From an uncultured Planctomycetota bacterium (GTDB lineage Bacteria; Planctomycetota; Planctomycetia; Isosphaerales; Isosphaeraceae): a stretch of 64,000 nt of DNA. The stretch's first letter is position 1; every line of letters begins with the position of its first letter. Below the pieces are notes generated by a model. It was not told the DNA's origin, searched no databases, and saw nothing but the letters and a program-made list of their open reading frames with translations. Positions 3,886-32,396 of this stretch are shown here, piece after piece. The position numbers and the translations under genes are program-made. The stretch lies in contig CAWGMQ010000008.1 in the NCBI GenBank assembly GCA_963823665.1, forward strand, positions 1,536,001 to 1,600,000, written 5' to 3'.

Positions 3886-3951
3886 CGTCGCTACTCTCCA
3901 CGCTGTTCGATTGCTTGAGACCGCTCCTTCACCGAATACGCGCATCCCTGA

Positions 3952-5106: not shown

Positions 5107-5621
5107 CACCTGGCCTCCACCTTGCGGAACGCGAATCACCTCGACGTCAGAAATGGCGGACCACGCAAATCGAGAACATGCAGCGTAGCCCGAAAAATTG
5201 CTGTAGAGACCCAATACTACCTAGAATATACACTCTGTGCAAGCTTCTCAATCTGTTGCACGAAATACTCTTCACAGGGCAACGCCTTCGGCACGTGCGC
5301 AGAAATATGGACAAACGTACCGATCCGCGCCGTGGCTCGAGCTCATTGGCCCACGATGTCATCAGCTTGGTGTCAGTTGGTCGCGAGCATTGATTCTTCT
5401 CATGCAGCTCGAGCGCGCATTCGGTTCCTGGCACCTTTTCTGGCACCGTTTCGCAGGGGTCGCGGGACGGACGAGTTTTGCGTATGCTTTAGAGAGCCGG
5501 CGGGAGTGTTACGATTTGAATCCACCGAGAGCCATCTGACGGATTGCCCGCCGGAACCGTCCTCGACGCCGGAAAAAGCTCCATTTCGCTGTCCCGAATG
5601 AATCGGTTCCACGTTACCTCC

Positions 5622-6530: not shown

Positions 6531-6608
6531 GAACACCCTTCCCATGGGAGATCGTCACACGAGTTTCTCGCAAGCCTCACCGAGCTTATTCCGGCAGGAG
6601 AGACCGCA

Positions 6609-15184: not shown

Positions 15185-15469
15185 CGCGATACCTCCGTGT
15201 ACAAGCGCCAACAGGTGGCGTTTCTGAATGACGGCCGCCATGCGAGCCAAAATATACAATTTCCTGATTTCGGGAAGCGAAAGTCCCGTTTCTTGGCTTG
15301 CCGAGAGCCGGGGCGCCTTCCCGACGCATGGACGCTACGCCGTCGTGACGGCCAGGGTTCGAATCGGGGTTTGGTGTAGTCAGCAAATTGGTGACGGCGG
15401 CCGTCGCAGCCCGAATCTTTGATTCCACCGGCTGCCAGCAGCTTGAGTTGGCCCGCCGTCGCAAGTAGA

Positions 15470-15655
15470 ATCCCTGGCAGAGCAACGGCGAGAGCTGGTT
15501 GCGAACAGAACCACAAGAACCTGCTTGGCGAACGGGAACCCGGTGCGAATCCGGGGCAGACGTGCTGCTGTAACGGCCGAAAGTACCTCGACAAATGTGC
15601 CACTGCGAGAGCGGGAAGGCGTCGGGGCGGCCGAAGCCAGAAGACCGGCCGGGCG
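15470..15655 (+). promoter_or_regulatory. Cobalamin (B12) riboswitch
   Basis: AACGGGAA (15531), CCCGGTGCGAATCCGGG, CTGTAA, GCCACTG (15599), GGGAAGG (15613), AAGCCAGAAGACC (15634) in canonical order upstream of B12-related genes; ends approximate. Confidence 0.92.
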
Positions 15656-15793
15656 GGGGCATCGTCGTCCTCACGATCTGGGAACCGATGCAACTGGGCC
15701 CGCCGCGATGAGCCGGCTCCCGGTTGTGTCCTTTTCCTGAAGGACATGTCCGGGAGCCGGTTGCTTTTGATGAGCGAGCGGGGAGATGGGCGG

Positions 15794-16534
15794 ATGAGCA
15801 CAGATCATGGCAAGCCGACGCCGGTGGTCATGTCGTGGAGCGGCGGCAAAGACAGCGCGCTGGCTTTGCACGAGCTTCGGAGCGACCCGCGTTACGAGGT
15901 CGTCGCCCTGATGACGTCCGTATCCGAGGAGTTTCGCCGTATCAGCCATCATGGCGTGCGCGAGGAGCTGCTCGAAGCACAGGCCGAGGCCATCGGGCTG
16001 CCGCTCACCAAGATTTACCTTCCCTCGGGCAACACCACGCCGTGCACGAATGAGGTTTACGAGGAGATCATGGCGAAGGTCATGGACAACTTCCGGTCGC
16101 GCGGCGTCTACACCGTGGGCTTCGGCGACCTCTTTCTCGAAGACCTGCGGGCCTGGCGGGAGGCAAACCTGGCGAAAGCCGGCATGACCGGACTTTTTCC
16201 GATCTGGAAACGCGACACGCACCAATTGCCGCGGCAGATCATCGCAATGGGTTTCAAAGCCATCCTTTCGTGCGTCGAAGGAAAGGTCGGAACGGGGTTC
16301 GCCGGGCGAGCGTATGACGACGACCTGCTCAACGATCTACCGGAGGGCATCGATCCCTGCGGCGAATATGGTGAGTTTCATTCGTTCGTGTACGACGGGC
16401 CGTGTTTTGGCCGGCGGCTCGCGGTGAACGTCGGCGACATCGTGACGCGGGACGGCCGGGAGTATGCGGACTTGCTCCTGGCCGAGACCCTTGTGCAGGC
16501 GTCGTGCGCCGCGAGTGAGATCCCGCCGGTTTGA
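15794..16534 (+). CDS. Dph6/diphthine-ammonia-ligase-like PP-loop ATP pyrophosphatase
   Basis: SWSGGKDS PP-loop, HGV, FGDLFLED, DPCGEYGEFHSFVYDGP. Confidence 0.92.
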   Translation: MSTDHGKPTPVVMSWSGGKDSALALHELRSDPRYEVVALMTSVSEEFRRISHHGVREELLEAQAEAIGLPLTKIYLPSGNTTPCTNEVYEEIMAKVMDNFRSRGVYTVGFGDLFLEDLRAWREANLAKAGMTGLFPIWKRDTHQLPRQIIAMGFKAILSCVEGKVGTGFAGRAYDDDLLNDLPEGIDPCGEYGEFHSFVYDGPCFGRRLAVNVGDIVTRDGREYADLLLAETLVQASCAASEIPPV

Positions 16535-16571
16535 TGAAAGACATGAGCTTTCGGAGATTGGAGGCTTTGAC

Positions 16572-17138
16572 ATGAACAAGAGATTGATTGTGCTCGTGGG
16601 GATTACCTTGGCGGCTGCGCTTGCCAGGCTGCTGCCGCATGAGCCGAACGTCACGCCGATCGCGGCGATGGCTCTCTTCGGTGGAGCGTGTTTCCGGAAT
16701 CGAAGGATGGCCTACTTGCTTCCGCTCGCCGCCATGCTGCTGAGCGACCTGGTTCTGGGGCTCACGCGATACGATCTGATGCGTCTGCTTGCGATTCAGC
16801 CGGTTGTCTATGCATGCTTCCTCATGACGACGGCCTTCGGGCGCCTCGTCACGGACCGGAGGTCGATTTTGCAGGTCGGTGGGGCCATGCTGGCCGGTTC
16901 GATCTTATTCTACGTGGTGACGAATTTCGCCGTGTGGGCCGGGGGCGAGATGAGCAACCTGTACCCGCTGACGGCGTCTGGCCTGGCGGATTGCTACGTC
17001 GCGGCGATTCCCTATTTCCGCAACAGCCTCGCGGGTGATTTCGGCTACGCCGTGATTCTGTTCGGCGGCTTGGCGGTGCTGGAGAGTCGAGTGGCCTGGA
17101 TGCGCGAGGGTGTCGCAAAGGCGACGGCAAGCGCGTAG
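16572..17138 (+). CDS. DUF6580-type membrane protein, putative ECF S-component-like corrinoid transporter
   Basis: RLLPHEPNVTPIAAMALFGGA, FYVVTNFAVW, GLADCYVAAIPYFRN; several TM helices; RBS GGAGG. Confidence 0.8.
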   Translation: MNKRLIVLVGITLAAALARLLPHEPNVTPIAAMALFGGACFRNRRMAYLLPLAAMLLSDLVLGLTRYDLMRLLAIQPVVYACFLMTTAFGRLVTDRRSILQVGGAMLAGSILFYVVTNFAVWAGGEMSNLYPLTASGLADCYVAAIPYFRNSLAGDFGYAVILFGGLAVLESRVAWMREGVAKATASA

Positions 17139-17151
17139 AGCGGGGGGCTGC

Positions 17152-18291
17152 ATGCGCGTCATTTCCTTGCTGGCCAGCGGTACCGAGATCGTCTGTGGCT
17201 TGGGCGCCGGCGAGTGGTTAGTCGGCCGGTCGCACGAATGCGACAACCCGGCCTGGGTGTCCGAGCTTCCGGCGTGCACAAAACCCACGTTCGACATTTC
17301 GATGTCGAGCCGTCAGATCGACGAGGAAGTGCGGCGCCGGTTGAAGGCACGCGAGCCGCTTTATCACATCGACACGGAGCTGATCAATTCGCTGGACCCG
17401 GATCTGCTGATCACGCAGGAGCACTGCGAGGTGTGCGCCGTGACGCCGGCTGACGTCAAGCGGGCTGGGTGTGTTTCCGCCAAAGAGGTGCTGGCGTTAC
17501 AAGCCGGTAGCGTGCAGGGGATTTTCGATGGCATTTTTTCGATTGGCCGTGCCTTGGGCCGCGAAGAGAAGGCGAGCAACCTCGTGCGGACAATGAGAAA
17601 CCGCATTGATGGAGTTCATGCTGCGGTCAAGGACCGGCGGGCGCCAAGCGTCGTGGCGCTGGAATGGACCGAACCGATCTTCGCGATGGGCAACTGGGGG
17701 CCGGAGCTGGTCGAAGCGGCCAATGGCCGGCTGTTGCTGGGCGAGAAAGGTGCCTATTCGACGGCGATCGACTGGCAGCGGGTGTGCGACGCCGACCCGG
17801 AGTTCCTGATCATCGCGCCATGCGGATTCGATCTGGATCGCACCCTCAGCGAGCTGCCGATGCTTGAAGCACAGCCGGGCTGGTTTGACCTGCGGGCAGT
17901 GCGCGAAGGGAAAGTCGCTTTCGCCGACGGCAACAAGTACTTCAACCGATCCGGCACGACGATCGTGGAGACGGTGGAGATCGTCGCGGAGATTCTCCAC
18001 GGCTATGCAGCCGGCCACCGGGGCAGGGCGTGGGTAAGCTACGCCTGCCTCGGGCAGACACGATTGATTCGCGAAGCGCATGCGCGGGCATGCGCAAAGA
18101 ACTCGCCAACCTATGTCGATCCGGTGACGGGATACGACGTTTTCACGGCTGATTTCTTGAGGCGACGTAGCGAGTGCTGTGAGAGCCGGTGCCGGCACTG
18201 CCCTTACTCGGCGGGGCACGTTGATGAATCAAGCGCACGCAAGAACTGCCAGACTCACACGAAAGATGGCAAAGAGTCGGTGGCGTTTTGA
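17152..18291 (+). CDS. BtuF-like cobalamin-binding protein (no signal peptide) fused to C-terminal DUF5522-like Cys-rich domain
   Basis: MRVISLLASGTEIV..LG...LVGRSHECD, PDLLITQ..C.VCAV, EWTEP, DGNKYFNRSG; tail YVDPVTGYDVFT...CCESRCRHCPY. Confidence 0.85.
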   Translation: MRVISLLASGTEIVCGLGAGEWLVGRSHECDNPAWVSELPACTKPTFDISMSSRQIDEEVRRRLKAREPLYHIDTELINSLDPDLLITQEHCEVCAVTPADVKRAGCVSAKEVLALQAGSVQGIFDGIFSIGRALGREEKASNLVRTMRNRIDGVHAAVKDRRAPSVVALEWTEPIFAMGNWGPELVEAANGRLLLGEKGAYSTAIDWQRVCDADPEFLIIAPCGFDLDRTLSELPMLEAQPGWFDLRAVREGKVAFADGNKYFNRSGTTIVETVEIVAEILHGYAAGHRGRAWVSYACLGQTRLIREAHARACAKNSPTYVDPVTGYDVFTADFLRRRSECCESRCRHCPYSAGHVDESSARKNCQTHTKDGKESVAF

Positions 18292-18583
18292 CCTGTCGCT
18301 GAGAACCGCCACGCGCACCGTCTGCGGGACCTTTTGCGCGGTCGGCCGTCGTTTCCAATCTCAAGCGCCGGCGCCATCCCTGGCCGTGCCCCCGGCGGCG
18401 AATTAGCGATCTCGCCGCTGGAAAATGGGAATGTGCTAGGGTATAAGTGAAAACTGGAGATCTGAGGGACAGAATCCCGATAATCGAAGGTCCTTATCGC
18501 GGGGTTTCCGCAAGAGCCGCCCACTTCCGAGACGTCGCCGAGTATGTCCGTTGCGAATGGGATCGGCCCGGAGTTCGAGTTAG

Positions 18584-19174
18584 ATGGCCAGGGAAATCTG
18601 CTTCTCAGATCGAAACGTCGTCCATGATTATTTTGGTACATTGATCTGTGAGCTCATTTCTACGGAGGAGATCTCGGAGAGAGTCAAGGAGATGGCGGCG
18701 GAGATAGGAACGGACTACGCCAACAAGACCCCTCTGGTCGTCGGCATGTTGAAGGGCGCCTGGATCTTCATGGCGGACCTTGTGCGTGCAATCCCTATCC
18801 CGGTGGAGTGTGATTTCTTGAAGGTGTCCACGTATGGACTAGCGACGTCTTTCTCGGGTCACGTCGACCTGCAGCTTGACCTCCGACGGGACATCCGGAA
18901 CGAGCACGTGCTGATCGTCGAGGACGTGATCGACACGGGGGAGGGCACGACCTGGCAGCTCAACCGCCTTCGCGAGAAGGGCCCAGCGAGTTTGCGTGTC
19001 TGTGCTCTAATGAGCAAACCTTCACGACGAAAGGTTCCAGTCGAGATCAACTATTTGGGGTTCACGATCCCTGACTGTTTCGTGGTTGGCTATGGCATTG
19101 ATAAGGGCGAGCGATTCCGCGAGCTCGATTACGTTGGGTATTGCGCCGCGGTCGATGTAGTAGTGGCCGACTGA
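18584..19174 (+). CDS. hpt: Hypoxanthine-guanine phosphoribosyltransferase-like protein
   Basis: MLKGAWIFMADL, VSTYG, VLIVEDVIDTG PRPP motif, KPSRR, FVVGYGID..ERFREL. Confidence 0.88.
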   Translation: MAREICFSDRNVVHDYFGTLICELISTEEISERVKEMAAEIGTDYANKTPLVVGMLKGAWIFMADLVRAIPIPVECDFLKVSTYGLATSFSGHVDLQLDLRRDIRNEHVLIVEDVIDTGEGTTWQLNRLREKGPASLRVCALMSKPSRRKVPVEINYLGFTIPDCFVVGYGIDKGERFRELDYVGYCAAVDVVVAD

Positions 19175-19274
19175 CAGCGCTCAATGCACCCGACCAAGGC
19201 AGGGCGCTTCTTGCTGTCTCGTGGATGAGAATCATCAGCCGGACCGCGCGAGTTTCCCACGCAGGTGGTGAAGG

Positions 19275-19928
19275 ATGAATACCGCACACGGGATCCCAGC
19301 ATGCCCCTTTTGCCTGTACATCATTAAGGGGCCCGTGACGGTGTTGTCGGAAGACAGCACCTGTGTCGTCCAACGAGGGTCGCACTTCGCCCTGATACCC
19401 GACGACGCGCCCGTCGTTCCCTTTCACCTCTTGGTGGTTAGTTGTAAACACTCGTGCAGGAGCATAATGGCGAAGCAAGACCAAGGGGGCGAACTCGCGG
19501 ATATGAAGGAGGCCGTCAGGCTTTTTAATCGCCGGACGACCGGGTTCGAGACAATGTTCTTTGAGCATGGCAGTTGCGTGGAAGAGAGCGGCTCTTCGTG
19601 TCTGGTTCATGGGCACCTCCACGCGGTGCCGCTCTCACAAGAACATCGCACAGCAGTCTTCCGCGAAGTATTGCGCCTCTTGGGCTGCCCTGACGCCGCG
19701 CAGATAGAGTCCTCGGCTTACCTTTACGCTGAATTCGTTGAAGGTCAAGGTCTGTACTGGTCAGACGTATTGAAAAGGCGACAGTTTTTCCGACTCCTTA
19801 TTGCGCAAGCGACGGGCAATGCAGATCGCGCCAGATGGCAGACTTGTTTGTCCAACGAGAGGCTGTCTGAAGCGGGCGCACGATGGAAGAATGAGTGTGT
19901 AAAGGCTTGGAGAGACGGCGCGAGCTAG
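19275..19928 (+). CDS. HIT-like (histidine triad) nucleotide hydrolase/transferase
   Basis: N-terminal CPFC, PVVPFHLLVVS..H, FFEHG, HGHLHAVP triad. Confidence 0.8.
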   Translation: MNTAHGIPACPFCLYIIKGPVTVLSEDSTCVVQRGSHFALIPDDAPVVPFHLLVVSCKHSCRSIMAKQDQGGELADMKEAVRLFNRRTTGFETMFFEHGSCVEESGSSCLVHGHLHAVPLSQEHRTAVFREVLRLLGCPDAAQIESSAYLYAEFVEGQGLYWSDVLKRRQFFRLLIAQATGNADRARWQTCLSNERLSEAGARWKNECVKAWRDGAS

Positions 19929-20080
19929 GGCAGATCTCGACTCGGCGCTCGACGAGCGCTGCGAACGATCAGGGGCGTCGCAATCCGCACGGGTCGCGCT
20001 ATAGAACTTGGCCCTCGTTAGTCACTCGTGAGTTGTGCCTGCGATGCACTCTGCCTGATTAACCCCGGTGTTCTCAGAAC

Positions 20081-21349
20081 ATGACGTTTCCAACGGGGTT
20101 CGCGGTTGATTATGACGGGAATGGGATCCCACGGAAACTTCCGTTGATCGAGTTTCTGGCGCGATCCCTCGGCACGACGGTCAGCCGACCACTCCGTGAC
20201 TTCCTCTTCCTCGGAGTGCAACACCTCACCGGCTCCGCCGTGCCACTCTTCCACGCACTCGCCGATGCCGGCATCCCGTACCATCGAATGTTCCTCGTCG
20301 GTAAAGCATACTCTTCCCACCCGAAAGTAATATCGTGTTTGACCGGGCTCGGTTGTCGGCTATCGAACGACGCTACGATGCTCTCGCCCTCAAACCCGTA
20401 CGAGGACGAGATCGAGTCCGAGATCGAACGGCAATTGACAAAAGTGTCGGGACTCTTGGACCGGTCGGCCGATATTTCCGCTCTGGTATTCGACGAGGGG
20501 GGCAAGGCGGTACGCGCCATTCATCAGACGTTCCGCGGCCAGGCACGACGGTTTCACTGCGTTGAACAGACGACGCGGGGCCTGCGTGAATTTACGGGCG
20601 GGTCATTGCTTTGCCCGGTCATCAACGTGGCTCGTAGCAACGCGAAGATGGAAATCGAAGCGCCGATCATCGCCAGGTCGATGGTCGCGGCGTTGGAGGA
20701 GGCCCGTTCTGAATGGCGGCCGATTTACGACGCTCCACTCAACGACGCCCTGGTGATCGGTTACGGAGTCGTTGGGCGAAACCTCGTGAAAGAACTCCTT
20801 TCGCGCGGCTACCGGGTGCGAGTATTCGAGAAAGCGGAATATGTTCTCGACTCTCTCCCTTCGGGGGAAAAGGCGTCCCGGGTGGAGAAACTCGAAAGTG
20901 AGCTTTCCGAAGTACCAATCGTAATGGGATGCACGGGTGGCCTATGCTTATCAGACGCCGCCTTTTGCGCATTACGTGACGGCGCGCTTCTTGTTAACTG
21001 CGCTTCCTCCGACCTTGAGTTCGCGGCGTGGAGGTTCCGGACGATCGGTAGGGTGATCCACACGCGTTCGACTTCCGGAGATCACGAGTTGCAACCTTGG
21101 AAGAATCTGTACTCTGTGCAGAGCGGCCTGCGGACGTTTTACCTCGCCAACGGTGGATTTCCTATCAATTTCTCGGGTAAGCTCGACCCAATTGCTCCAG
21201 AGGAAATCCAGTTAACGCGGGCATTGATGTATTCGGCGGGCCTTCAGGCCGTCGCAACGCAAGAGGCCGGACTGTTGCCGCTTTCAGAAGGAGCCCAGGT
21301 TATGATCAGTGAATGGATCCGCGGCCGGGAAGCGCACGAACACCACTAA
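20081..21349 (+). CDS. Divergent S-adenosylhomocysteine-hydrolase (AhcY)-fold NAD-dependent enzyme
   Basis: VQHLT, FDEGG, VEQTTRG, PVINVARSNAK, VIGYGVVG (NAD), NCASSDLE, NGGFPINF align in order with AhcY motifs. Confidence 0.8.
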   Translation: MTFPTGFAVDYDGNGIPRKLPLIEFLARSLGTTVSRPLRDFLFLGVQHLTGSAVPLFHALADAGIPYHRMFLVGKAYSSHPKVISCLTGLGCRLSNDATMLSPSNPYEDEIESEIERQLTKVSGLLDRSADISALVFDEGGKAVRAIHQTFRGQARRFHCVEQTTRGLREFTGGSLLCPVINVARSNAKMEIEAPIIARSMVAALEEARSEWRPIYDAPLNDALVIGYGVVGRNLVKELLSRGYRVRVFEKAEYVLDSLPSGEKASRVEKLESELSEVPIVMGCTGGLCLSDAAFCALRDGALLVNCASSDLEFAAWRFRTIGRVIHTRSTSGDHELQPWKNLYSVQSGLRTFYLANGGFPINFSGKLDPIAPEEIQLTRALMYSAGLQAVATQEAGLLPLSEGAQVMISEWIRGREAHEHH

Positions 21350-21400
21350 TGCTCTCGGGGAGGTTTTGCCCGGAAACTCACTCCCGCGGAGAACCGAGCG

Positions 21401-24400
21401 TTGCAGCGTGTTACGATACTCTTCCTGGCAGCGAACCCGTCGGACGAGGCGCGCCTGCAGTTCGACAAGGAGCGACGCGCGATCGAGGATGAGATCCGAA
21501 AGAGCGTTTACCGTGACTGGTTCAAGCTCCCACTGTCTTACGAGCCAAACATCAATTCCGACCGCCTTATTGAGGCGTTCAGGCAGCACAAGCCTCAAAT
21601 CGTTCATTTCGCTGGCCATGGCACGAGTTCGAGCGAGATTATCCTTCAGAACGCCGCTGGGACGTCCCGGCGTGTCCAGTCCGACCAGTTGGAGGAACTA
21701 TTCCGCCTCCACGGACAAGGTGTCAAGCTCGTCGTGCTTAACGCCTGCTATTCCAGTTCCCAAGCTAAGGCCATCACACGCCACGTCCCCTGCGCAGTCG
21801 GGATGCAGCGTGCCATCCCTGACGCGACGGCCGTCGCCGTAGCCGTGACCATGTACCAAGGTTTGGCAAACGGCGAATCAGTCCAAAATGTTTTCGATAC
21901 CGCTCAACTCCAGTTGAAGCTTCAAGATCCTGATTCGGATGGCGCAAATCGCGACCTCATTCGGCTGGGTGGAAGGGCTGTTGAGTCCGAGAAGCTCCTG
22001 GTACTTCATGTCAGAGCCGGGACCGATGCGCACCGCATGTTTGTTGTCAAGTCGGTCGTTGCCGTGGTGGACGGAAAACGCGAACCTCGCCGTGAGGATG
22101 GCGGATCGGTAAGCGAAGACGCACGTGATGCAGCGATGGGCGCTGCGGAAACTTCTTCCAGCCCCGCAGCCAGGGCAGGAGAATCTTGCCAACTCGCGGG
22201 GGTGTCAACCGGCAAAAACCGGTTCGAAGCCGACAGGCGGACGACACCCCGGGAGGACTGTGACGAGATCGTCGACGTCTCGATCTTCTTCGGCCGGACG
22301 CGCGAGCTGAAGGAACTTTGCCGGGCTGTGCGCAAGCGGCGAGTTCGAGTGATCGCGATTCTAGGGTTCGGAGGGATCGGAAAGACCGCGCTTTCAGAAA
22401 AGTTGGTGGAGCGTGTAAAGCCGGGATTCCAGTTCCTCTTCAGGAGGAGCCTGAAAGACGCTCCACCAATCGAGCAATTGCTGGCGGATTGCATTCGGTT
22501 CGTGTCGGGCGAGCCTGACATCGCGGTTCCGAGAGACGTGAACGGGTTAATCGGCATGCTGATCAAGTACTTGGGCCAGCATTCCTGCCTGATCGTCTTG
22601 GACAACGCTGAATCGATCCTCCAGACGGGCCGTCGTGTGGGAACATACAGGGACGGCTACGAAGGCTACGGGGTTTTGATGCGCAAGGTTGGAGAAACGG
22701 TCCATCGGAGCTGTTTACTGATCACTAGCCGAGAGAAACCCGAGGAAATCGCCACGCTTGAGGGCGTCGGATCCTCGGTCTTTTCACTGAATCTGGACGG
22801 TCTCGGAATGCGGGATGCGATCACGCTCCTGAAGCGGAAGGGACTCTCCGCCCCACGGGGTGAGTTGGAGACCGTGGTCGGCCGGTACAAGGGGAACGCG
22901 CTTGCGCTCATGATCGCCGCGAGCTACATCCAGGATACCCCGGGGGGGAGTGTCGCATCGTTCCTACGAGAAAACGTCTCCGTCGTCGGGGACATCCGCG
23001 AATTGGTGTGCCAGCAGATTGAGCGGGTTGCGCCACTCGAGCGCACGGTTGTGTTCTGGCTGGCGATCAACCGCGAACCCACATCCCTCGATGAGCTTCG
23101 GTCCGACCTTAACGATGTTCTGAGGTCGGGGGCACTGGTCGACGCTCTACACTCGCTCAATCGACGTTCATTGATCATGCCGACCGCTTCCAAATTCACC
23201 CTGCAACCGGCCGTCATGGAGTTTGTCATCGAGATGCTTATTGAGCGGGTCTGCGAGGAGGTGACCGGAGGCGCTGGCGATCTCCTCGAGACGCACGCTT
23301 TGATGAAAGCTCAAGCAAGCGACTATATCCGAGAGAGCCAGGTGCGTCTGATAGTGAGGCCCCTGGAACAATGCCTGTCATCCAAAGGAAGATCCCGGAT
23401 TCCAGCACTGGTCAAGACACGGCTTCAAGTCCTACGCGAAACCCAGCGGGACGGCTTCGGCGCCGGAAATCTCCTGAACCTGCTCGTACAGGTGAATGCC
23501 GACCTCACGGGTTTTGACTTCTCGCACCTTACAATCAAACAGGCCTTCCTCCAGGGAGTCTCCCTCAACGACACAAACTTCGCGCACGCACGCTTTGAAA
23601 AATCCGTCTTCACCGACACCTTCGGGAGCGTTACATGCGTGCGATTCAGCCCGGACGGGAGCGTAGTCGCGACGGCCTGCGGTGATGGTACGATCCGCTT
23701 CTGGGGCGACGACGGCACCCACCTCCGCGTCATACTGGCCCATAGCGACTGGGTGCGCTCGGTCGCCTTCCACCCGGAGGGCGCCATCCTGGCAAGCGCG
23801 AGTGACGATAGGACCATCAGGTTGTGCCGGGTTGATACCGGGGAGTTGATAAGAGAGTTGCGCGGGCACAGCGACCGCGTCTTCGCGGTAGCCTATTCGC
23901 CGGATGGCGACCTGCTCGCGTCTGGAGGAGGGGACGGTGTCGTCCGAATTTGGCGGTCGGTGTCCGGAGAGTCGCTTGCGGCCCTGCAAGGGCATGTCAG
24001 AGCGGTGCGTGCCGTGGACTTCAGCAGGGTTAGCGACAAGCTGGTAAGCGCCGGCGAAGACGGAGTAGTTATCGTGTGGGAGCTGACCACTCACAGCAAA
24101 TTGGCGACATACAAACAACATTCCGGTCAAGTGAGCGCGGTCGCCTTCAGTCACGACGGGCGGTTTATCGCAAGCGGCGGCCAGGATCGAGTCGTGAGGA
24201 TTTGGAACTCGGAAAGCGGGGAAACCGTGGCGGAATTGCGCGGACACACCGACGCCATCCTGAGCCTTGCCTTCCGCGGAGATACCCTGGAACTCGCCAG
24301 TGCGGGCATCGACCGCCTCGTCAGGATCTGGGACGGCGCCGAGCGGAGCGCCCCCAAGAGCCAGGGAATTCTGAGGAAAGCCTTGGAGGGCCACATGAAT

Positions 24401-25504
24401 TGGGTGAATACTGTCACATACAACCGGACGGCAGACGCGCTCGCCAGCGGCGGCGCCGACCAAACAGTGCGGATATGGAACGCAGATTCGGGCAACCGCC
24501 TGAGGACGCTGCAGGGGTACGGGAGCCCGGTGTGGTCTCTCGCCCTGAACAGCAGCGACGCAGTGCTTGCGAGCGGCCACGGTGATAACACCATAAGGCT
24601 CTGGCAGTTCGACTCTCGCACGTGCTGCCGGATTCTCCGGGGACATTCCAACTGGGTCTGGGCCGTCACATTTTGCGACGACCAACTGCTGGCGAGCGCG
24701 AGTGGTGACGGGACTGTACGCTTGTGGGATATCGGGACTGGTAGGTGCATCCGGCAGCTGCTCGGACATTTCTCCGGCGTACGCGGCCTCGCTGTTTCGC
24801 CAGACGGCGCCCGCCTCGCGAGCTGCAGCCACGACCAGACAATCCGCATTTGGGATCTTCGGACGGCCGCGTGCGTGCGCGTGCTCGAAGGGCACACGAA
24901 CCTAGTCGAATCGGTGGCGTTCCACCGAGACGGCAGCACGCTCGCTAGCGGCGGGGCCGATCAATCCGTCGTTCTCTGGAACGCCGATACCGGCGAGCGG
25001 AAATGCGTCCTTGGGCGAGACCTCGGCAGGATTCGGCTCACGAAATTCAGTCCTGACGGCGTGGGAGTGGCTGCTTGTAGCGACGACACAACGGTTCGTA
25101 TCTGGGATATTCGAACGAACGAGTGTGTTGCACTCTTGCGGGGTCATAGCGATCGCGTCACTTCCCTCGACTACAGCCCAGACGGCAAATTCTTGGTCAC
25201 GTGTGGTGTCGACTGTACTGTGCGGCTCTGGAGGACCGCCACCAGCGAATGCGTCGCTATCCTTTACAGCCATCTGGCCCACGTCCGGACGGTCATCTTC
25301 GACCATGCCGGTCGGTCGGTCGCCAGCGGGGGGCTCGACGAGTCGATCAAAATCGTCAAGATTCTAACATCAGAATTACCAGTCACGATAAGAATAGAAA
25401 AACCATATCATAATATGAATATTACTAATGTTCGTGGCTTAACAGAGGCACAGACGATGGCCCTGAAATCGCTCGGCGCGATCGACGATCGCTCGCCCGC
25501 CTAG
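21401..25504 (+). CDS. CHAT (caspase-like) - NB-ARC STAND NTPase - pentapeptide - 14x WD40 protein
   Basis: ILFLAANP, VHFAGHG and VVLNACYS dyad; Walker A GFGGIGKT, Walker B LIVLDNAE, LLITSRE; 14 WD40 repeats counted; tail KPYHNMNITNVRGLTEAQ...LGA. Confidence 0.95.
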   Translation: MQRVTILFLAANPSDEARLQFDKERRAIEDEIRKSVYRDWFKLPLSYEPNINSDRLIEAFRQHKPQIVHFAGHGTSSSEIILQNAAGTSRRVQSDQLEELFRLHGQGVKLVVLNACYSSSQAKAITRHVPCAVGMQRAIPDATAVAVAVTMYQGLANGESVQNVFDTAQLQLKLQDPDSDGANRDLIRLGGRAVESEKLLVLHVRAGTDAHRMFVVKSVVAVVDGKREPRREDGGSVSEDARDAAMGAAETSSSPAARAGESCQLAGVSTGKNRFEADRRTTPREDCDEIVDVSIFFGRTRELKELCRAVRKRRVRVIAILGFGGIGKTALSEKLVERVKPGFQFLFRRSLKDAPPIEQLLADCIRFVSGEPDIAVPRDVNGLIGMLIKYLGQHSCLIVLDNAESILQTGRRVGTYRDGYEGYGVLMRKVGETVHRSCLLITSREKPEEIATLEGVGSSVFSLNLDGLGMRDAITLLKRKGLSAPRGELETVVGRYKGNALALMIAASYIQDTPGGSVASFLRENVSVVGDIRELVCQQIERVAPLERTVVFWLAINREPTSLDELRSDLNDVLRSGALVDALHSLNRRSLIMPTASKFTLQPAVMEFVIEMLIERVCEEVTGGAGDLLETHALMKAQASDYIRESQVRLIVRPLEQCLSSKGRSRIPALVKTRLQVLRETQRDGFGAGNLLNLLVQVNADLTGFDFSHLTIKQAFLQGVSLNDTNFAHARFEKSVFTDTFGSVTCVRFSPDGSVVATACGDGTIRFWGDDGTHLRVILAHSDWVRSVAFHPEGAILASASDDRTIRLCRVDTGELIRELRGHSDRVFAVAYSPDGDLLASGGGDGVVRIWRSVSGESLAALQGHVRAVRAVDFSRVSDKLVSAGEDGVVIVWELTTHSKLATYKQHSGQVSAVAFSHDGRFIASGGQDRVVRIWNSESGETVAELRGHTDAILSLAFRGDTLELASAGIDRLVRIWDGAERSAPKSQGILRKALEGHMNWVNTVTYNRTADALASGGADQTVRIWNADSGNRLRTLQGYGSPVWSLALNSSDAVLASGHGDNTIRLWQFDSRTCCRILRGHSNWVWAVTFCDDQLLASASGDGTVRLWDIGTGRCIRQLLGHFSGVRGLAVSPDGARLASCSHDQTIRIWDLRTAACVRVLEGHTNLVESVAFHRDGSTLASGGADQSVVLWNADTGERKCVLGRDLGRIRLTKFSPDGVGVAACSDDTTVRIWDIRTNECVALLRGHSDRVTSLDYSPDGKFLVTCGVDCTVRLWRTATSECVAILYSHLAHVRTVIFDHAGRSVASGGLDESIKIVKILTSELPVTIRIEKPYHNMNITNVRGLTEAQTMALKSLGAIDDRSPA

Positions 25505-25526
25505 GCACGAGAACCGAGGTAACACC

Positions 25527-26234
25527 GTGAAAAGAGTTGGTCCGCGAGCACGCATCGAATGTGTTGTCGTCGATCTCGACGGTACGATTTTGGACCGCCC
25601 GGCCTCTCTTCCGGGCGAGGCCAATTCCGCGGCGTTGAGCTCTCTCTTATCGAAGGACGAGTGCCTTCACGACCTGAGCGAGCTCATGCGAAAAGTATCG
25701 ACAGCCGTGACAGTGGGAAAGGGAATTCTGGCTTCCAAGACCTGCCAATTCGAGACGCTCCTCGACCATCTAGGTCGGAACGACCGCGGTCTGGCAGACC
25801 GCCTGTTCAATCAGTATATGCAAGTTTACCTCTCGCGCTGCCAACTGTACCCCGAGGTCAAATCGGTACTCGAAGCGCTCGACGCGCGCGGCGTTCGCGT
25901 CGGACTCATCACGAATAGCCCCGACGACATCGTCACCGAACTCTTGCGGCACTTTCATGTCGATCGACATTTTGATTTCATCGTCGCTGCGTCCCTAATT
26001 CGGCATCCCAAGCCGTCACAGGCGTTCACTCGCGCCCTAGGTGAACTGGCCGGTGTGCCCCCGAACGTTCTCGTCCTTGCTGGCGATGGCGACGAAGATG
26101 AGGCCACAGCCGCGGCGATGGGAGCGATCTTTTATCGCGTGGTTAGGGGCCGTAACCAGCCATCATCAGCCGCTCCTTTTCAAGTGGCCGACCTCGCGCA
26201 GCTGTTCGACACGTGCTTCCCGAACGGTGTCTGA
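25527..26234 (+). CDS. HAD-superfamily phosphatase (subfamily IA)
   Basis: VVDLDGT, ITNS, HPKP, AGDGDED motifs I-IV; RBS GAGG. Confidence 0.9.
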   Translation: MKRVGPRARIECVVVDLDGTILDRPASLPGEANSAALSSLLSKDECLHDLSELMRKVSTAVTVGKGILASKTCQFETLLDHLGRNDRGLADRLFNQYMQVYLSRCQLYPEVKSVLEALDARGVRVGLITNSPDDIVTELLRHFHVDRHFDFIVAASLIRHPKPSQAFTRALGELAGVPPNVLVLAGDGDEDEATAAAMGAIFYRVVRGRNQPSSAAPFQVADLAQLFDTCFPNGV

Positions 26235-26412
26235 CCCCCACAGAGGCCGCACCCCGAGTCCCTGAGCCGCTCTTCGCTCGACGTAGCGCACCCAAGACCG
26301 ACGCCGCAAAAAAACCTCGCATCTCGTGCTAGGTTTCTGGCCGCGCTCGGCTACTCATTGGTGACCGAACGAGAAGCTGAATCATTCACCCGTTACGACG
26401 GGAGACGATCAC

Positions 26413-27442
26413 ATGAATCCGCGGAAAGCGCGCCATTCGCACCGGAACCCTCTCCTGCACCTCTGGCAGATCGCACCTTATCGTGCCGGATATCGCGAGC
26501 GCCGCTCGGCGTCCTGCAAATCAAGGCGAACGTACCCGCGACAGTTTCGGGCGTCACGATAAGCGGTGGCAAGGCGGAAATCGGCGCAGGGGTGCTGAAC
26601 AGCGGCAACGTCAACCTGTCGGGCGTGGCGGTCAGCGGCAACGTCGCCGGGATCGACGGTGGCGGTGTGTTTAATAGCGACGGCGAACTCACGATGAACC
26701 ACTGCACTATCTCTGGAAACTCGGCGCAACACGGCGGAAGTGTGTACGTCGGCAGAAGTACCGCGCTCACGGATCTCGACAACAGCACGGTCAGCGGCAA
26801 CTCTGCGTATGATGGCGGTGGCTTGTATAGCGGCGTCGGCGCTCCCCTCGCGATTTCCGATTGCACGATCAGTAGCAACACCGCCCAGAACGTGGGTGGC
26901 GCCCTCGACAACGGATGGGGGGGACCGCCTCGCTGACTGACCGCACGATCAGCGGCAACGTCGCCGACTCGGAGGGCGGCGGCTTCTACAACGGTCGTTA
27001 TACAACTCTCAGCGAGACCAACTGCACGATGAGCGGCAACTCCGCCTCCGCCAACGGAGGCGGCGCTTTGAATAACTTCTACCACGGCAAGGTGTTCCTC
27101 ACGAACACCATCGTGGCGGGTAACACCGGGCCAGGAAATGCACCGAGCGATATTACTTTTAGCCTTTTCTTAGGCAGAAGGACGCCCATCCGCGGCCAAT
27201 ACAACTTCATAGGACCGGGCGGGTCGGGCGGAATCCATGGCGGCGGCGGAAACATCATCATGACGAATCTCGCCAAACTGGACCTGGGTCCGCTGGCCAA
27301 CAATGGCGGGCCTACCCAGACAATGGCCCTGTTGCCCGGAAGTGCGGCGATCCACGCCGGCATCACGGTCACTGGTCACACCACCGACCAGCGTTTTTCA
27401 CCAATCGACTCGCCCCCCGACATTGGCGCGTATCAGACTTAG
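26413..27442 (+). pseudogene. Decayed secreted beta-helix (polymorphic-membrane-repeat) / choice-of-anchor Q protein
   Basis: SGNxA..GGG repeats; LGPLANNGGPTQTMALLPGSAAI..G, DQR, PDIGAYQ; frameshifts near 26440 and 26930; degenerate APLADRTLS export motif. Confidence 0.75.
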
Positions 27443-27676
27443 TTCGCAAGCGACGCTCAAACCCATGTCACCGCCGAGGACGGAACGACTTCCGTGGCCG
27501 ATCCAGATGGTCGTGATGGACCTCGACGGCGGCCACCGATCGAAGATCCACATGCCCGACGCGAGAATAACCGACATGCCGGACTCGCGATGATGCCGGA
27601 CCTTGGTCGATCGCACTCTCGCGTCGAGAGGCCTGACTGAAGAATGCGGAGCAGTCGCACTCTGGCTGCATCGACC

Positions 27677-27712
27677 AAAATGCCCCTGGTCCGATCTCTC
27701 GAACCAGGGGCA
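27677..27712 (-). terminator. Intrinsic terminator after slipin fragment
   Basis: TGCCCCTGGTTCGA-GAGA-TCGGACCAGGGGCA (14-bp stem with one G-U, GNRA loop) followed by TTTT on the minus strand. Confidence 0.7.
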
Positions 27713-27734
27713 CAGTCGCAATTCGCGTCTGCGG

Positions 27735-28388
27735 TCACAGAAGGTTGACGACCTTTTCGGCGAGGCCCTTGTCGCCAAGGACAATGTTGAGCTTGCCGCC
27801 GGCGGCTACCTTCTCCAAGACTTCCAGCTCACGCAGCCGCATGAGGGTTGGGCTCTCCGCCAGCAACTTGGCCGTGTTGGCCTGGCTGCGAATAGCCGCC
27901 GTCTCCTCTCGACGCGCGATCAGGTTGCTCTCGGCTGCCTTCCTGGCTTCCGTCACCTTGTTCATCAGGTCCTTGATCTCCCCGGGCAGAATCACGTCAC
28001 GAATGCCGACCGTGGCGATCGCGAGACCGAGCTCGCCGGCCCGACGCCGGAGGGTCTCCTCGATCTCGCGGGCAACGGCGTCCTTGTCCGTCAGGAGAAC
28101 GTCGAGCTCCCGTGCCCCGACCGCGGCCCGCAGAACGAGCTGTGTGTCGCGATATAGCGCCTGCCGTACGTCGTCGGTCTGGCTGATCGCCTTGCGAGCG
28201 TCGACGATCTTGTAAGTCGCCACAGCGTTCAACCGCAGTGTGACCTTGTCGGCCGTCATGATCTCCTGACCGCCGACGTCGACCATCGTCTCCCGCAAGT
28301 CGACCTCGACCACCCTGGCGTCCGCCGGGCCCTTCCAGAACGCGTATTCACCCGGCTCGAGCGTGCCAGAGTAGCGGCCGTCGATCGC
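27735..28388 (-). pseudogene. 5'-truncated slipin (SPFH/band 7) gene
   Basis: IDGRYSGTLEPGEYAFWK, GQEIMTADKVTLRLN, RDVILPGEIK, RREETAAIRSQANTAK, LMRLRELEVLE; homology starts abruptly with no start codon. Confidence 0.85.
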
Positions 28389-28508
28389 AGAAGGTGAAGC
28401 GTTCGCGGCTCACACGAGAAAGCACGGAGAAGCGCTTGAGCCGTGGTCTCCCCCGGATCCGAAGCGCGAGAAGCATGGCCTTCGTCCCAAAGCGAGCCTT
28501 GAGATCCA

Positions 28509-28625
28509 TCAGCCAGCCGCTTTGCGCTGCTTTGCCGAGCGAGCGCCGCGGCGGAACCTGCGTTCTGCAAGGTGCCTGCGCGTGCTGCCAGTAACCCCGG
28601 CGAACCAGAGTTGTGGCCGAACCAA
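28509..28625 (-). CDS. Putative 38-aa basic leader peptide (MVRPQLWFAGVTGSTRRHLAERRFRRGARSAKQRKAAG)
   Basis: Extended Shine-Dalgarno AAGGAGGTG (28634-28642) shortly upstream of TTG at 28625; lies between tRNA-like element and slipin. Confidence 0.45.
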   Translation of the reverse strand: MVRPQLWFAGVTGSTRRHLAERRFRRGARSAKQRKAAG

Positions 28626-28701
28626 CGAACGTTCACCTCCTTTGGGCTTCGTGGTCGAACAGGTCTTGCGACCGTTTCGTAGAGAGTCGATTCAGCGCCG
28701 A

Positions 28702-28773
28702 CGTGTGGTACGGGAGTCGAACCCGTGACAGCCAGATTATCGGTCTGGTGCTCTACCCCTGAGCTAACCGTGC
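28702..28773 (-). tRNA. Pseudo-tRNA / tRNA-like element with Ile GAT anticodon
   Basis: GCACGGT TA GCTC-AGGGGTA-GAGC A CCAGA-CCGATAA-TCTGG CTGTC ACGGG-TTCGACT-CCCGT ACCACAC G: D, anticodon and T arms perfect; acceptor stem has 3 mismatches; C at position 33; no CCA. Confidence 0.8.
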
Positions 28774-28800
28774 TGATGACCTCCGTTCAGAACCCATGTA

Positions 28801-28843
28801 CGGTACAGGCGGAGCCAAACCCTCTCGGGTGACTCGCCTGCCG
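28801..28843 (-). other. GNRA-capped RNA hairpin upstream of the tRNA-like element
   Basis: CGG-CAGGCG-AGTC-ACCC(GAGA)GGGT-TT-GGCT-C-CGCCTG-TA-CCG. Confidence 0.5.
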
Positions 28844-28955
28844 CTGGTCGGATGCCATCACTTCATTTCAGATCCGCGGCGGCCTCGAAATGTTCGCGGA
28901 ACAGAAAATAAGACTCACCCTCGAAGCGGATGAGGGTGTGCACCGCGCCGAACAT

Positions 28956-31900
28956 TCAAGGGGACTTCTTCGGCCGGGCAAGAGATGTCTCGTCTAACTC
29001 TTCGAGCAGTTTCTTGAAATCCTCCCGCGTGCGAAACGCCTCGAGTGCCGCCTCGGTGCGGAAGGCGCTCGCGTTCCGGAAGCCGACTGTCGACGGCCTT
29101 TCTCAGCAGAGCCATCGCCTGGGCCGCTTCGGCCTTGCCGTCGTCGGCCGACACGCCGGCTCCGTCCTTCCCGGCCAGGCCGGCGAGCGCCGCGCGGCAG
29201 CACGCTGTCTCGAACCGCTCTTCGCCCGACCGCGAGGTGAGCCCGTCATACAGCCCCAGTGCGCCGGCGGGTATCGGCCGACCCACCCGTGAGGTCGCTC
29301 AGTCGCGCAGGGCCAATCCGCGCCGTCGCAACGAGTGGGCCAGGAGGCTGCGGTACCACGGATTGGGGTTTTCCTTGACCAGCTTTTCGTGGATGGCGAT
29401 GGCCCGTTCGTAATCTTCGCGCGCCTCCGCGAGCCGGCCGAGCGCACGAATCACGTCGCCGAGGTAGTAAAGAGCGCCGGCGAGGCCAACCTTGTGGCCT
29501 GGGGCATTGGGGTTGTCGTCGCTCAGCTTCTGGTAAAGCGCGATGGCGTTGCGCTCCTCGGCCTCAGCCTCCGCCGCCCGGCCCGTCTGCGACAGCAGGA
29601 TACCGAGATCGAGGTGATTATTCGCGAGCTCGGCGCGAATGCGCGGTGACGGAGGGATCAAGGTCGGCCAGCTTTTGATAGATCGCCATCGACTTGCGGT
29701 ATTCCGCTTCCGCCTCAGGCAGCTTGCCCGACTCGCCGAGCAGATAGCCCAGATTGTGGCGGCTGCGTGCCAGATCACTCTGGAGCTTGGTGACGGTGGG
29801 GTTGTCGTCGGCAAGCTTTTGTCTGATCGCCATCGCCTTCTGGAACTCAGCCTGAGATTCCGCGGGCCGGCCCGTTTGATGCAGCAGGATCGCGAGCGAA
29901 GAATGGCTGTCCGCCAGGTTGCCGCGGTAATCGGCGACGGTGGGATTCTCTTCGGCCAGCTTCTGATAGATCGCCATCGACTTTCGGTGCTCGACTTCCG
30001 ACTCCGAGGCGCGGCCGGTCTGGCTCAGCACTTCCCCGAGGTTTCTGTGGCTCAGCGCCAGGTCGTTCCGGAATTCGATGACGGCGGGATTATCGTCGGC
30101 GAGCTTTTGCTTGATCGCCATCGCCTCGCGGAACGCGGCTTCCGAGTCTTTGGATCGGCCCGCGATCGTTAGCAGCAGGCTGCCGCGGTTGTTGGAGATG
30201 ATCCCCAGGCGACGCCGGATTTCGGAATTAGCTGGGTTTTCCTGGGCCAGCTTCTGATAGATCGCTAGCGCCTTGCTGTATTCGACGTCGGCCTCCGACG
30301 GCCGACCCGTTCTTCCAAGCAGATTGCCGATGCGGTTGATGGTGTTCGCCAGCTCGCGCCGGGCCTCCATCGTTGCGTCGGGCGCCTCGGTCAGCACTTC
30401 CTGGTCAGACCGAGCCTGGCGAAGGACCTCTAGCCCGTCGGCGGCGTGGCCTGTGCTGTAGAGCAGGTAGCCAAGCCGAGACCGGCAGTCGGCCAGGGCG
30501 GCCCGTACCGGGGCGGTCGCCGAGGCGCTCGCAGCCGGGGCTTCGAGCAAAGCCTCGGCCTCCCGATACGTTGCCACGGCGTCGTCGGTCTTGCCGACTC
30601 CCTCGAGAAGGGTCGCGACGGCCGTCAGGCTGCGACCGACATCGGCGCTGGTCTCGGCGTCGGCGTTCGGGCTCGGCCGCCAGCGCCTTCCTTGCGGCCA
30701 GCACCGCGCGGTGCGCCGCCAGGGCCTCCTCCTTGCGTCCGACCTTGTCGGTCAGGTCGGCCAGCTCGAAGTTCGAGCGCCGTCAGCGCCCGCCGTGAGG
30801 CCAGGTCGGTCTCGTTGCCGAGCAGGGCCGACAGCTTGCCGTAGAAGTCGGCAGCCGATTTCAACAGCCGGTCGCGCAGCTCCTTGAACTGGTTCTGCTT
30901 GAGCAGGAAGTCCTCGCTGACACCCGTGTGGAACGTCTTGATGGCGTCGACGGCGAGATTGTAACGCGCCTGAACCTTGATGTTGGCGGTGGTCAGGTCG
31001 GCATTGGCCGCGGCCAGCGCCGTGTTGGCCCGTGCCGCACGGATCAGACCCCAGGTGGTGCCCACCATCCCCAGCACGAGCGACAGCATGACCAGGCCCG
31101 CCGCCACAACCTGGCCCTTGTGCCGGCTGGCGAACTTGCGGAGCCGATAGCCTGCACTTGGCGGCCGCGCCTCCACCACCTCGTTGGCCAGGTAGCGCTG
31201 GATGTCGCGGGCCAGGCCGCTGGCCGTTTCGTACCGTCGGTCGCGCTCCTTTTCCAGGCACTTCATCACGACCCAGTCCAGGTCGCCCTCGCAGCATCGT
31301 CATCAGCTTGCGCGGCTCGGTCTGCCGCAGCGCCGCCTGCGACGGCAGCGAAGCGTCCGATCGACAGCCGCGTCGAGGGCTTCGAAGGCTCTTCCTCGCG
31401 AATGATCCGGATCATTTCCGAGAACGCTGCCTTCTTGAGCCGTGCCGCGTCGGTCGGGCGTAGGCCCGTCAGCAGCTCGTACAGGATCACGCCCAGCGAG
31501 TAGATGTCGGACCTCGTGTCGACGTCTTCTCCCGAGAATCCCGCCTGCTCGGGCGACATGTAATCAAGCGTGCCGACCACCGCGCCGAACTGCGTGGCCA
31601 GCGTTTCATCGGTCAGCTTGCCGGCGGTCGCCTTCGCCACTCCGAAGTCGATGACCTTGGGCACCGGCTTGCCGTCAATCAGCGTGACCAGGATGTTGGC
31701 GGGCTTGAGGTCACGATGGACAATTCCCTTCTGATGCGCGTGCTGCACCGCCTGGCAGATCGGTACGAAGAGCTCGAGACGCTCCGTCGGCGTGAGCTTC
31801 GCGTCGTCGCAGAATTTCGAGAGCGGTAGGCCGTTGACCAGCTCCATGACGAAAAAGGGCTGTCCGTTCGGCGTCAGACCGCCGTCGAGCACCTTGGCGA

Positions 31901-32396
31901 TGTTGGGGTGGTCCATGAGCGCGAGCGCCTGGCGTTCCTGCTCGAACCGCTGCAGCACAGCCCGGGAATCCATCCCCGGCTTGATCAGCTTGAGCGCGAC
32001 CTTGCGTTTGACGGGCTCGGTTTGCTGGGCGACCCAGACTTCGCCCATTCCGCCTTCACCGATTCGCCGTTCGAGAGTGTAGCGCCCCGAGATGACGACG
32101 CCGGCCGAGGCACCCTTCTCTCGGAGGGCGGCGGCTGCGAGAATCGACGCCGGATCGGGCCCCGGGGTGAGCACTTCGGTGAGATCGCTGCCAAAATGCG
32201 GTGCGTTCGAATCGATGGTCGCCCCGACATCGCCTCCTGGCAGGTCGAGGAACCCTCCCGTAGCTTCATGCGTGGCCAGAAGCCCCTCGACGGTGGCACG
32301 GAGGTCGGGTTTGCCGGCGCAGGCTGCGTCAAGGAACGCGGTGCGCTCAGCGGGCGGTTTGTCCAGGGCATCGCGCAACAGCGTTTCTTCGTTCAT
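28956..32396 (-). pseudogene. Ser/Thr protein kinase with TM segment and TPR array, broken by about 7 frameshifts
   Basis: IGEGGMGEV, VALKLIK, HRDLKPAN, DFG, GTLDYMSPEQ, DIYSLG; TPRs AMAIYQKLADDNP; true C-terminus REDFKKLLEEL..KKSP* at 28956; errors versus decay unresolved. Confidence 0.85.

Follow-up and report, generated by a model that had tools for sequence, protein, structure and literature searches.

A 64,000 nt stretch of DNA from an uncultured soil planctomycete of the family Isosphaeraceae (assembly GCA_963823665.1, contig CAWGMQ010000008.1, positions 1,536,001 to 1,600,000; hereafter the window) carries five intact genes that are foreign to the host genome, and the last four of these form a rare, co-inherited cassette whose effector domain has been swapped. 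In order along the forward strand they encode a hypoxanthine phosphoribosyltransferase (hpt), a HIT protein, an NAD-binding enzyme with the fold of S-adenosylhomocysteine (SAH) hydrolase (the AhcY-like protein), a STAND protein and a HAD phosphatase. The HIT and AhcY-like genes are also part of a wider module that is tied to cyclic-nucleotide genes, and the whole points to an undescribed kind of bacterial defence. A preliminary description, made from the sequence, had proposed a purine-nucleotide signalling or defence island of five families, and this interpretation is partly supported: the five co-directional genes with short gaps are there, and the folds assigned to them (phosphoribosyltransferase, HIT, AhcY fold, CHAT-NB-ARC-WD40 and HAD) agree with profile and structure matches, but the unit that is conserved consists of four genes, not five.

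Conservation of the four-gene unit

One relative of the cassette is at a locus of an acidobacterium (L007), where genes for HIT, AhcY-like, STAND-WD40 and HAD proteins occur in the same order as in the window, with products 44, 53, 49–54 and 49 % identical respectively to their window counterparts; the HAD gene has one frameshift near its end. A metagenome contig (L076) encodes the HIT, AhcY-like and STAND proteins at 42, 51 and 50 % identity and stops inside the WD40 region, before the position of the HAD gene. The gene set that was predicted to co-occur elsewhere thus recurs in other lineages, as the four-gene core. The hpt gene is absent from both relatives, as is the CHAT domain; the first slot is occupied in L007 by a SMODS/CBASS-type cyclase (PADLOC E-value 3e-129) and is empty in L076, which has no same-strand open reading frame (ORF) of at least 90 codons within 850 bp upstream, and the STAND proteins of both have DUF4062 at the N-terminus where that of the window has CHAT. 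Since the phosphoribosyltransferase and CHAT are missing from both, the inherited unit is not a purine system of five families; we reject a fixed set of five, of which these two are not conserved parts, and the label 'purine' had no source other than the local hpt gene. A second hpt gene in another genome (G415; 49 % identity) was considered as a relative of the cassette hpt and dismissed, because it sits in a tilS-hpt housekeeping context. Two further features of L007 are a divergent operon (2214–7349) of pyruvate-kinase-like, second HIT, 562 aa, split CMP kinase and MazG genes, and, on the other side of the cassette, a convergent TIR-nSTAND1-WD40 gene (16764–21173).

Scans with the AhcY-like alignment retrieved 68 genome, 1 viral and 80 metagenome loci (the last being the best 80 of 133), the viral scans giving just one locus per query, on the same contig each time. 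In a tree of 79 of these sequences, built without duplicates or short hits and with about one quarter of the low-scoring loci that lack HIT, the window, L007 and L076 proteins form one clade with support 0.973. The STAND proteins of the same three loci also form one clade (support 1.0; a tree of 62 sequences that takes in alternate database hits), so that the two trees agree, and the WD40 region is 53 % identical to that of L007, a value that does not exceed 44 % for any of the other 117 STAND proteins compared. The HIT, AhcY-like and HAD motifs are retained across the swap between CHAT and DUF4062. Because the effector has been exchanged between an NADase-family domain and a protease while the enzymes and the WD40 sensor stayed, the enzymes probably do not serve the product of one effector. 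The HIT subtype of the window is rare, with a profile match in 7 of 401 genomes around L007 and in 2 of 121 genomes of the host's own family, and its recurring adjacency to these genes is therefore not due to chance. The AhcY-like profile is positive in 2 of 401 same-phylum genomes, including the host. No further copies of the cassette were found among the 401 genomes around L007 and the 121 of the host's family, and the matches on plasmids were distant, with identities of no more than 29 % in 20 of the 52.

The pairing of HIT and AhcY-like genes extends beyond the cassette. A same-strand HIT gene lies within about 1.5 kb of the AhcY-like gene in 26 of the 149 loci, a count made with a HIT model that was itself built from such loci, some of them duplicates. 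For the wider clade of the window protein (support 0.992) the figure is 16 of 20, and the four loci that lack a HIT gene nearby have just 4–308 bp of upstream sequence; six further paired loci fall in one other clade. A cyclic-nucleotide synthase or receptor gene lies directly upstream in five of the seven distinct window-clade loci with the same HIT subtype: the SMODS cyclase of L007, a SIR2 gene with a cyclic-nucleotide-binding (cNMP-binding) domain within a prophage (L075/L093), a cNMP-binding gene and a PycC-like cyclase (L080), a cNMP-binding gene on a contig that is cut off (L082/L083), and a PycC-like cyclase, likewise on a cut-off contig (L087). The other two are L081, for which upstream sequence is lacking, and L076, where neither a cyclase nor a receptor gene is present. 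The link to nucleotide-signalling defence genes suggested in the preliminary description is thus seen in the relatives of the module, which adjoin CBASS-type, Pycsar-type, cNMP-binding and SIR2 genes.

Several of these loci have features of their own. The unit of L075 (8617–11777; also L093) lies inside a 40 kb prophage contig and has the order SIR2 with cNMP-binding, AhcY-like, HIT. In L080 (8882–11920) and L087 (2–2738) the PycC-like cyclase (PADLOC PDLC00734; E-values 1e-71 and 3e-48 in these sister loci) is followed by the AhcY-like and HIT genes, with no classic Pycsar effector adjoining. Two Alphaproteobacteria have a gene encoding PycTM between HIT and AhcY-like (L016, 8144–11158; L026, 8227–11197); the cyclase domain ahead of PycTM is weak (hhalign probability 4 %, E-value 0.01), and PycTM alone was counted. 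An actinobacterial AhcY-like clade (L013, 5336–14083; L018; P0071) is found with non-ribosomal peptide synthetase, cysteine desulfurase, HIT and ThiL-like genes and includes one ThiL-AhcY-like fusion; this is possibly a nucleoside natural-product cluster.

The encoded proteins and their genomic setting

The HIT gene (19275..19928) encodes a CwfJ-type nucleotide hydrolase or transferase in which the CxxC and EHG motifs and the H112-x-H114-x-H116 triad are intact, and these residues are invariant in eight sequences. A search with the single sequence retrieved only the query itself. Among PDB entries the C-terminal domain of CWF19L1 matches best, in sequence as well as in fold (Z 15.2, root mean square deviation 3.4, 175 residues), and the two-part CwfJ fold of the model (pLDDT 72.5), together with the triad, places the protein in the CwfJ branch. 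We note that the nearest fold to this subtype is thus the C-terminal domain of spliceosomal CWF19L1/CWF19L2, with the full triad kept. A predicted complex of the HIT and AhcY-like proteins scored 0.00, to which we attach no weight either way.

The AhcY-like gene (20081..21349) encodes a divergent protein that resembles canonical AhcY in its whole-chain fold, NAD-binding motif and His/acid/Lys redox core, and differs from it in overall identity (16–20 %) and in its base-binding, 2′-OH and gate residues. Its alignment profile matches SAH hydrolase structures at an E-value of 2e-28, and the model (pLDDT 90.5) superimposes on them over 368 residues (Z 37.8, root mean square deviation 3.0). When compared with the host AhcY and with PDB chains, the protein is seen to retain H48 and K189, to have E139 and E193 in place of two catalytic Asp residues, Q163 in place of the catalytic Glu and an invariant S309 in place of the gate His; it therefore does not hold the full catalytic set of SAH hydrolases (His, Asp, Glu, Lys, Asp and gate His), the roles of which we take to be those familiar from work on those enzymes. 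K75 and R166 are new invariants among 33 AhcY-like sequences. Given the retained H48/K189 core and the changed substrate residues, NAD-dependent oxidation of a ribose is plausible, and SAH is an unlikely substrate. An ordinary ahcY gene was considered and rejected, since the score against TIGR00936 is far under the cut-off (28.1 against 497.6 bits), the substrate residues are changed and a true ahcY is present elsewhere in the genome; the L007 genome likewise has a true ahcY elsewhere.

At E ≤ 1e-30 the family profile retrieves 1,429 clusters, of which the low end may include canonical AhcY. Many members (P0061–P0190) have long N- or C-terminal extensions without annotation. Among 34 long AhcY-like proteins, Pfam names an extra domain in three (ThiL-like, methyltransferase and cNMP-binding, among the best five families). 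In P0063 a cNMP-binding domain is fused to the AhcY-like domain, and in P0007 and P0008, which form the sister clade of the cassette, the fused domain is 2H-phosphoesterase-like, as judged from weak Pfam hits and two HxT motifs.

The STAND protein consists of a CHAT domain, an NB-ARC domain, a pentapeptide spacer and 14 WD40 matches. The CHAT domain exceeds the cut-off of PF12770, and its H73 and C116 (numbered from the TTG codon at 21401) align with the dyad of 8tl0, as in CHAT proteases. Walker A and B of NB-ARC are intact, and with an effector, a P-loop NTPase and C-terminal repeats the protein has a STAND/NLR-like architecture, so that its earlier reading as an Apaf-1-like STAND protein with a caspase-like N-terminus stands. 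The family has 1,154 hits at E ≤ 1e-100, which are cyanobacterial wherever the source is named. The ORF as assembled runs from 21401 to 25504, but the window probably has one base too many at position 21392, since it is missing from a short-read contig, and the database copy of the protein (P0193) begins at an ATG at 21349, overlapping the AhcY-like stop codon. Together these suggest that the gene is 21349..25504, encoding 1,384 aa and translationally coupled to the AhcY-like gene, with the TTG as the alternative start; the short-read contig and P0193 may stem from the same sample, and none of the short-read contigs spans the whole cassette.

The last gene (25527..26234) encodes a HAD phosphatase, a conserved member of the cassette, with Pfam and NCBIfam matches and an intact DxDGT nucleophile motif and other core motifs. 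The first gene (18584..19174) encodes a second, foreign hypoxanthine phosphoribosyltransferase, which exceeds the TIGR01203 cut-off (178.9 against 150 bits) and occupies a variable slot. It is 38 % identical to the single hpt of a genome of the same genus (G401) and 37 % identical to another hpt elsewhere in the 16.5 Mb host genome, which also contains a canonical ahcY (618 bits); separate housekeeping copies of both enzymes are thus present. The gene content of this genome, with one PF07595 match, is that expected of a planctomycete. The housekeeping hpt (L002, 1440–1971; contig C4 of the host assembly G000) carries a single additional base close to the 3′ end, and neighbouring genes are also split; this is probably an assembly error, like the other single-base errors of this assembly.

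The five genes are separated by 100, 152, 51 and 22 bp as assembled. They had been called indel-free, which holds in that all are intact and fails in the strict sense at position 21392. Their G+C fraction at third codon positions (0.65–0.70) is below the mean of the 31 other ORFs of the window (0.75; p = 5e-4), in keeping with the reported excess of A/T-ending codons, although these controls were window ORFs selected by the difference between third- and second-position G+C, which inflates the contrast; the overall mol% G+C of the island is just mildly low. The −10-like TATAAG reported near 18441 is present at about 18442, but it was not called by the promoter scan, in which promoter-like sites were at chance level (2 found against 2.2 expected), as were terminators.

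That the island is accessory is clear from a comparison with G401 (84 % complete), as well as from the separate housekeeping copies. Both flanks are syntenic, the interval 18061..28955 is not, and the site is filled in G401 by other genes (about 3.8 kb), which to judge from their translations resemble a repressor, a peptidase fusion and an efflux component; none of the five cassette genes was matched in G401. Between the cassette and the right flank (26358–28955) are pieces of a beta-helix/autotransporter-like gene and a band-7 gene, and the segment from 27.7 to 28.9 kb aligns at 88–90 % to another G401 contig. To the left (15419–18291) are genes for a diphthamide-synthase-like ATPase and a DUF6580 protein, and one in which a periplasmic-binding protein is joined to DUF5522; in G401 this last gene stops before DUF5522. 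Farther to the right (29299–32396) a Ser/Thr kinase-TPR-like gene is in several out-of-frame pieces, through either decay or assembly error, and at 5544–6530 there is a gene for a NYN-domain protein with a weak match to TIGR00288.

Possible functions of the cassette

We infer a role in defence, together with an order of reactions, a substrate and a coupling of the enzymes to the STAND protein, along the following lines. The four-gene core would move horizontally as a defence cassette. The WD40 propellers would keep the STAND protein shut until a ligand binds, upon which the NB-ARC domain would oligomerize and cluster the exchangeable N-terminal killer domain (CHAT here, DUF4062 in the two relatives), and the clustered domain would stop the infected cell. 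The HIT protein could open a nucleotide-linked substrate to a monophosphate, from which the HAD protein would strip the phosphate, and the AhcY-like enzyme could alter the ribose by NAD-dependent 3′-oxidation chemistry, so that the three would jointly make, or continually erase, a small-molecule signal coupled to the sensor's input. The first slot, when filled, would provide an enzyme that forms a purine nucleotide, such as hpt here or the CBASS-type cyclase in L007. We regard it as an even call whether the cassette serves defence in this NLR-like way, with a nucleoside or nucleotide signal that is made or erased by the enzymes on the input side of the sensor. Only tentatively would we go further, to a metabolite-gated NLR whose WD40 domain reads a sugar-modified nucleoside, made or erased by the AhcY-like, CwfJ-type HIT and HAD enzymes, with the HIT and AhcY-like pair as a general signal-editing module that also serves CBASS-type, Pycsar-type and SIR2 systems.

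A number of observations weigh against an input-side signal or a defence role. The cassette loci total three, one of which ends before HAD, and the swap that brought in CHAT may be a late event, in which case the argument from effector exchange would carry less weight. The window cassette itself has neither a cyclase nor a cNMP receptor, no known defence genes flank it, and PADLOC 2023 has no model for the HPRT, HIT, AhcY-like and HAD proteins and gave no hits for them. The AhcY-like gene is beside none of the seven other HIT genes of the window's subtype in the stretches retrieved, and other AhcY-like loci adjoin non-ribosomal peptide synthetase, cysteine desulfurase, ThiL-like, PPDK-like, Nudix and acyltransferase genes. 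Five N-termini from the cyanobacterial STAND family look to be extensions of helix-turn-helix type, not killer domains, so that a regulatory role is possible. To our knowledge, moreover, the characterized bacterial STAND sensors recognize phage proteins, not metabolites.

The rival that fares best, although we would not favour it, is a package of two parallel arms, in which the phosphoribosyltransferase, HAD and AhcY-like enzymes make a sugar-modified antimetabolite or antiviral nucleoside, HIT recycles it or provides self-protection, and the STAND protein is an independent, Avs-like sensor of phage proteins. The HIT and AhcY-like pair does join unrelated sensors and effectors, as an add-on arm would, and the angustmycin genes agmE-agmB-agmF offer a precedent; according to the available part of PMC8599513, AgmE is a phosphoribosyltransferase, AgmB a HAD phosphatase and AgmF an SAH hydrolase homologue acting as a dehydratase, the same three classes as in the window. 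AgmF, which acts after the other two, shows that the SAH hydrolase fold can be turned to the dehydration of a nucleoside. However, hpt is missing from both cassette relatives, and the AhcY-like protein does not fit the AgmF type. The residues given there as essential to AgmF are H56, D129, K184, D188 and H299, of which, as mapped through the SAH hydrolase alignment and not by a direct alignment with AgmF, two are kept in the AhcY-like protein, two are Asp-to-Glu changes and H299 aligns with the invariant Ser; AgmF is 34 % identical to the SAH hydrolase of M. tuberculosis, against 18 % for the window protein. The cassette also differs from the angustmycin cluster in its STAND gene; no ORFs for an angustmycin-type sugar epimerase or pyrophosphokinase lie in or adjoining the cassette, which has neither sugar-activating genes nor an exporter. 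The congruent trees and the probable translational coupling are better suited to a single unit.

It is less probable still, and in our view unlikely, that the genes are a nucleoside biosynthesis, detoxification or repair cluster with the STAND protein as its regulator, akin to cyanobacterial NB-ARC-WD40 signalling proteins. The abundance of this STAND family in cyanobacteria, the biosynthetic-looking clusters in which some AhcY-like and HIT relatives are found (L011–L013, L018) and the divergent operon of nucleotide-metabolic genes in L007 would all accord with such a role, but neither of the N-terminal domains of the cassette STAND proteins, the protease or the NADase-family one, is a DNA-binding domain, and the closest sister loci contain CBASS-type, Pycsar-type and SIR2 genes, one of them within a prophage. 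That the genes gathered by chance at an insertion hotspot, or serve purine salvage in place of a damaged housekeeping hpt, is very improbable: different cargo at the G401 site, the gene fragments after the cassette and the extra base in the housekeeping hpt are what it would lead one to expect, but the order of the four genes and the agreement of the trees, which hold in distant lineages, largely refute it for the core, the repeated adjacency of so rare a HIT subtype is not chance, and the hpt indel resembles the assembly's other single-base errors. It could account for the hpt gene alone; as a housekeeping salvage operon the whole island is rejected.

If the defence reading holds, both an uncharacterized enzyme family of SAH hydrolase fold and the HIT domain that corresponds in bacteria to that of spliceosomal CWF19L1/2 would gain a part in immunity, and either a new signal molecule or an antiviral nucleoside could come to light. 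A metabolite-gated NLR, if the cassette is one, would in addition link NLR sensing with nucleotide second messengers. The three-gene prophage version in L075 and the cyclase version in L080 offer cheap and tractable tests of the enzyme pair.

Comparison with known systems

We found no description of the module in the open-access literature, although supplementary operon tables of defence-discovery papers could list the cassette. The available parts of PMC8195603, PMC7159879, PMC13069673 and 10.64898/2025.12.03.692087 mention no SAH-hydrolase-like protein in such systems, and no accessory of this fold in CBASS or Pycsar turned up in the open-access literature. The window cassette is itself neither a CBASS, since it has no CD-NTase (the L007 relative has one), nor a Pycsar system, since it has no PycC cyclase, PycC-like genes being present in L080 and L087 only; the likeness is that the HIT and AhcY-like pair of the relatives sits behind a SMODS or PycC-like cyclase.

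In Thoeris type II of PADLOC, too, a HIT protein (ThsC) is accessory to a nucleotide-signalling defence, and the available part of PMC8565338 proposes it as a former or degrader of the messenger. The cassette differs in having no TIR/ThsA pair and in the CwfJ-type C-terminal extension of its HIT protein; none of the five window proteins has a Ths hit in PADLOC, and the HIT relative of L075 matches ThsC only at an E-value of 0.003. Kongming, as described in the available part of PMC13454610, is similar in that purine-metabolic enzymes build a non-canonical signal and in its SIR2 partner, which recalls L075, but the enzyme families are others, and a HAM1-SIR2 complex is present there where the cassette has a STAND-WD40 protein.

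Avs and bacterial NLR-like STAND proteins are defence proteins, and the cassette would function as one of these with nucleotide-editing accessories added. Its STAND protein shares with them, and with the AP-ATPase-caspase systems of Kaur et al. (PMC8195603, as far as available), the effector-NTPase-repeat layout, an intact P-loop and an exchangeable N-terminal protease or NADase-family domain. It is unlike Avs in belonging to a cyanobacterial family of NB-ARC-pentapeptide-WD40 proteins and in being co-inherited with three nucleotide-processing enzymes, and no Avs model is among the four PADLOC 2023 hits, though that library may not include this family. DUF4062 is described in the available part of a recent preprint (bioRxiv 10.64898/2026.05.01.722283) as a TIR-like NADase with an anti-phage role. 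Swarozyc, one of the DUF4062 NADases, differs from the cassette in that the portal is sensed via another domain, and the same part of that source does not mention HIT. It also notes that human TEP1 and NWD1 have a DUF4062-NTPase-WD40 layout, likened to Apaf-1, and calls their activating signal unknown; the DUF4062-NB-ARC-WD40 proteins of L007 and L076 mirror this human layout, in which the window protein has CHAT instead.

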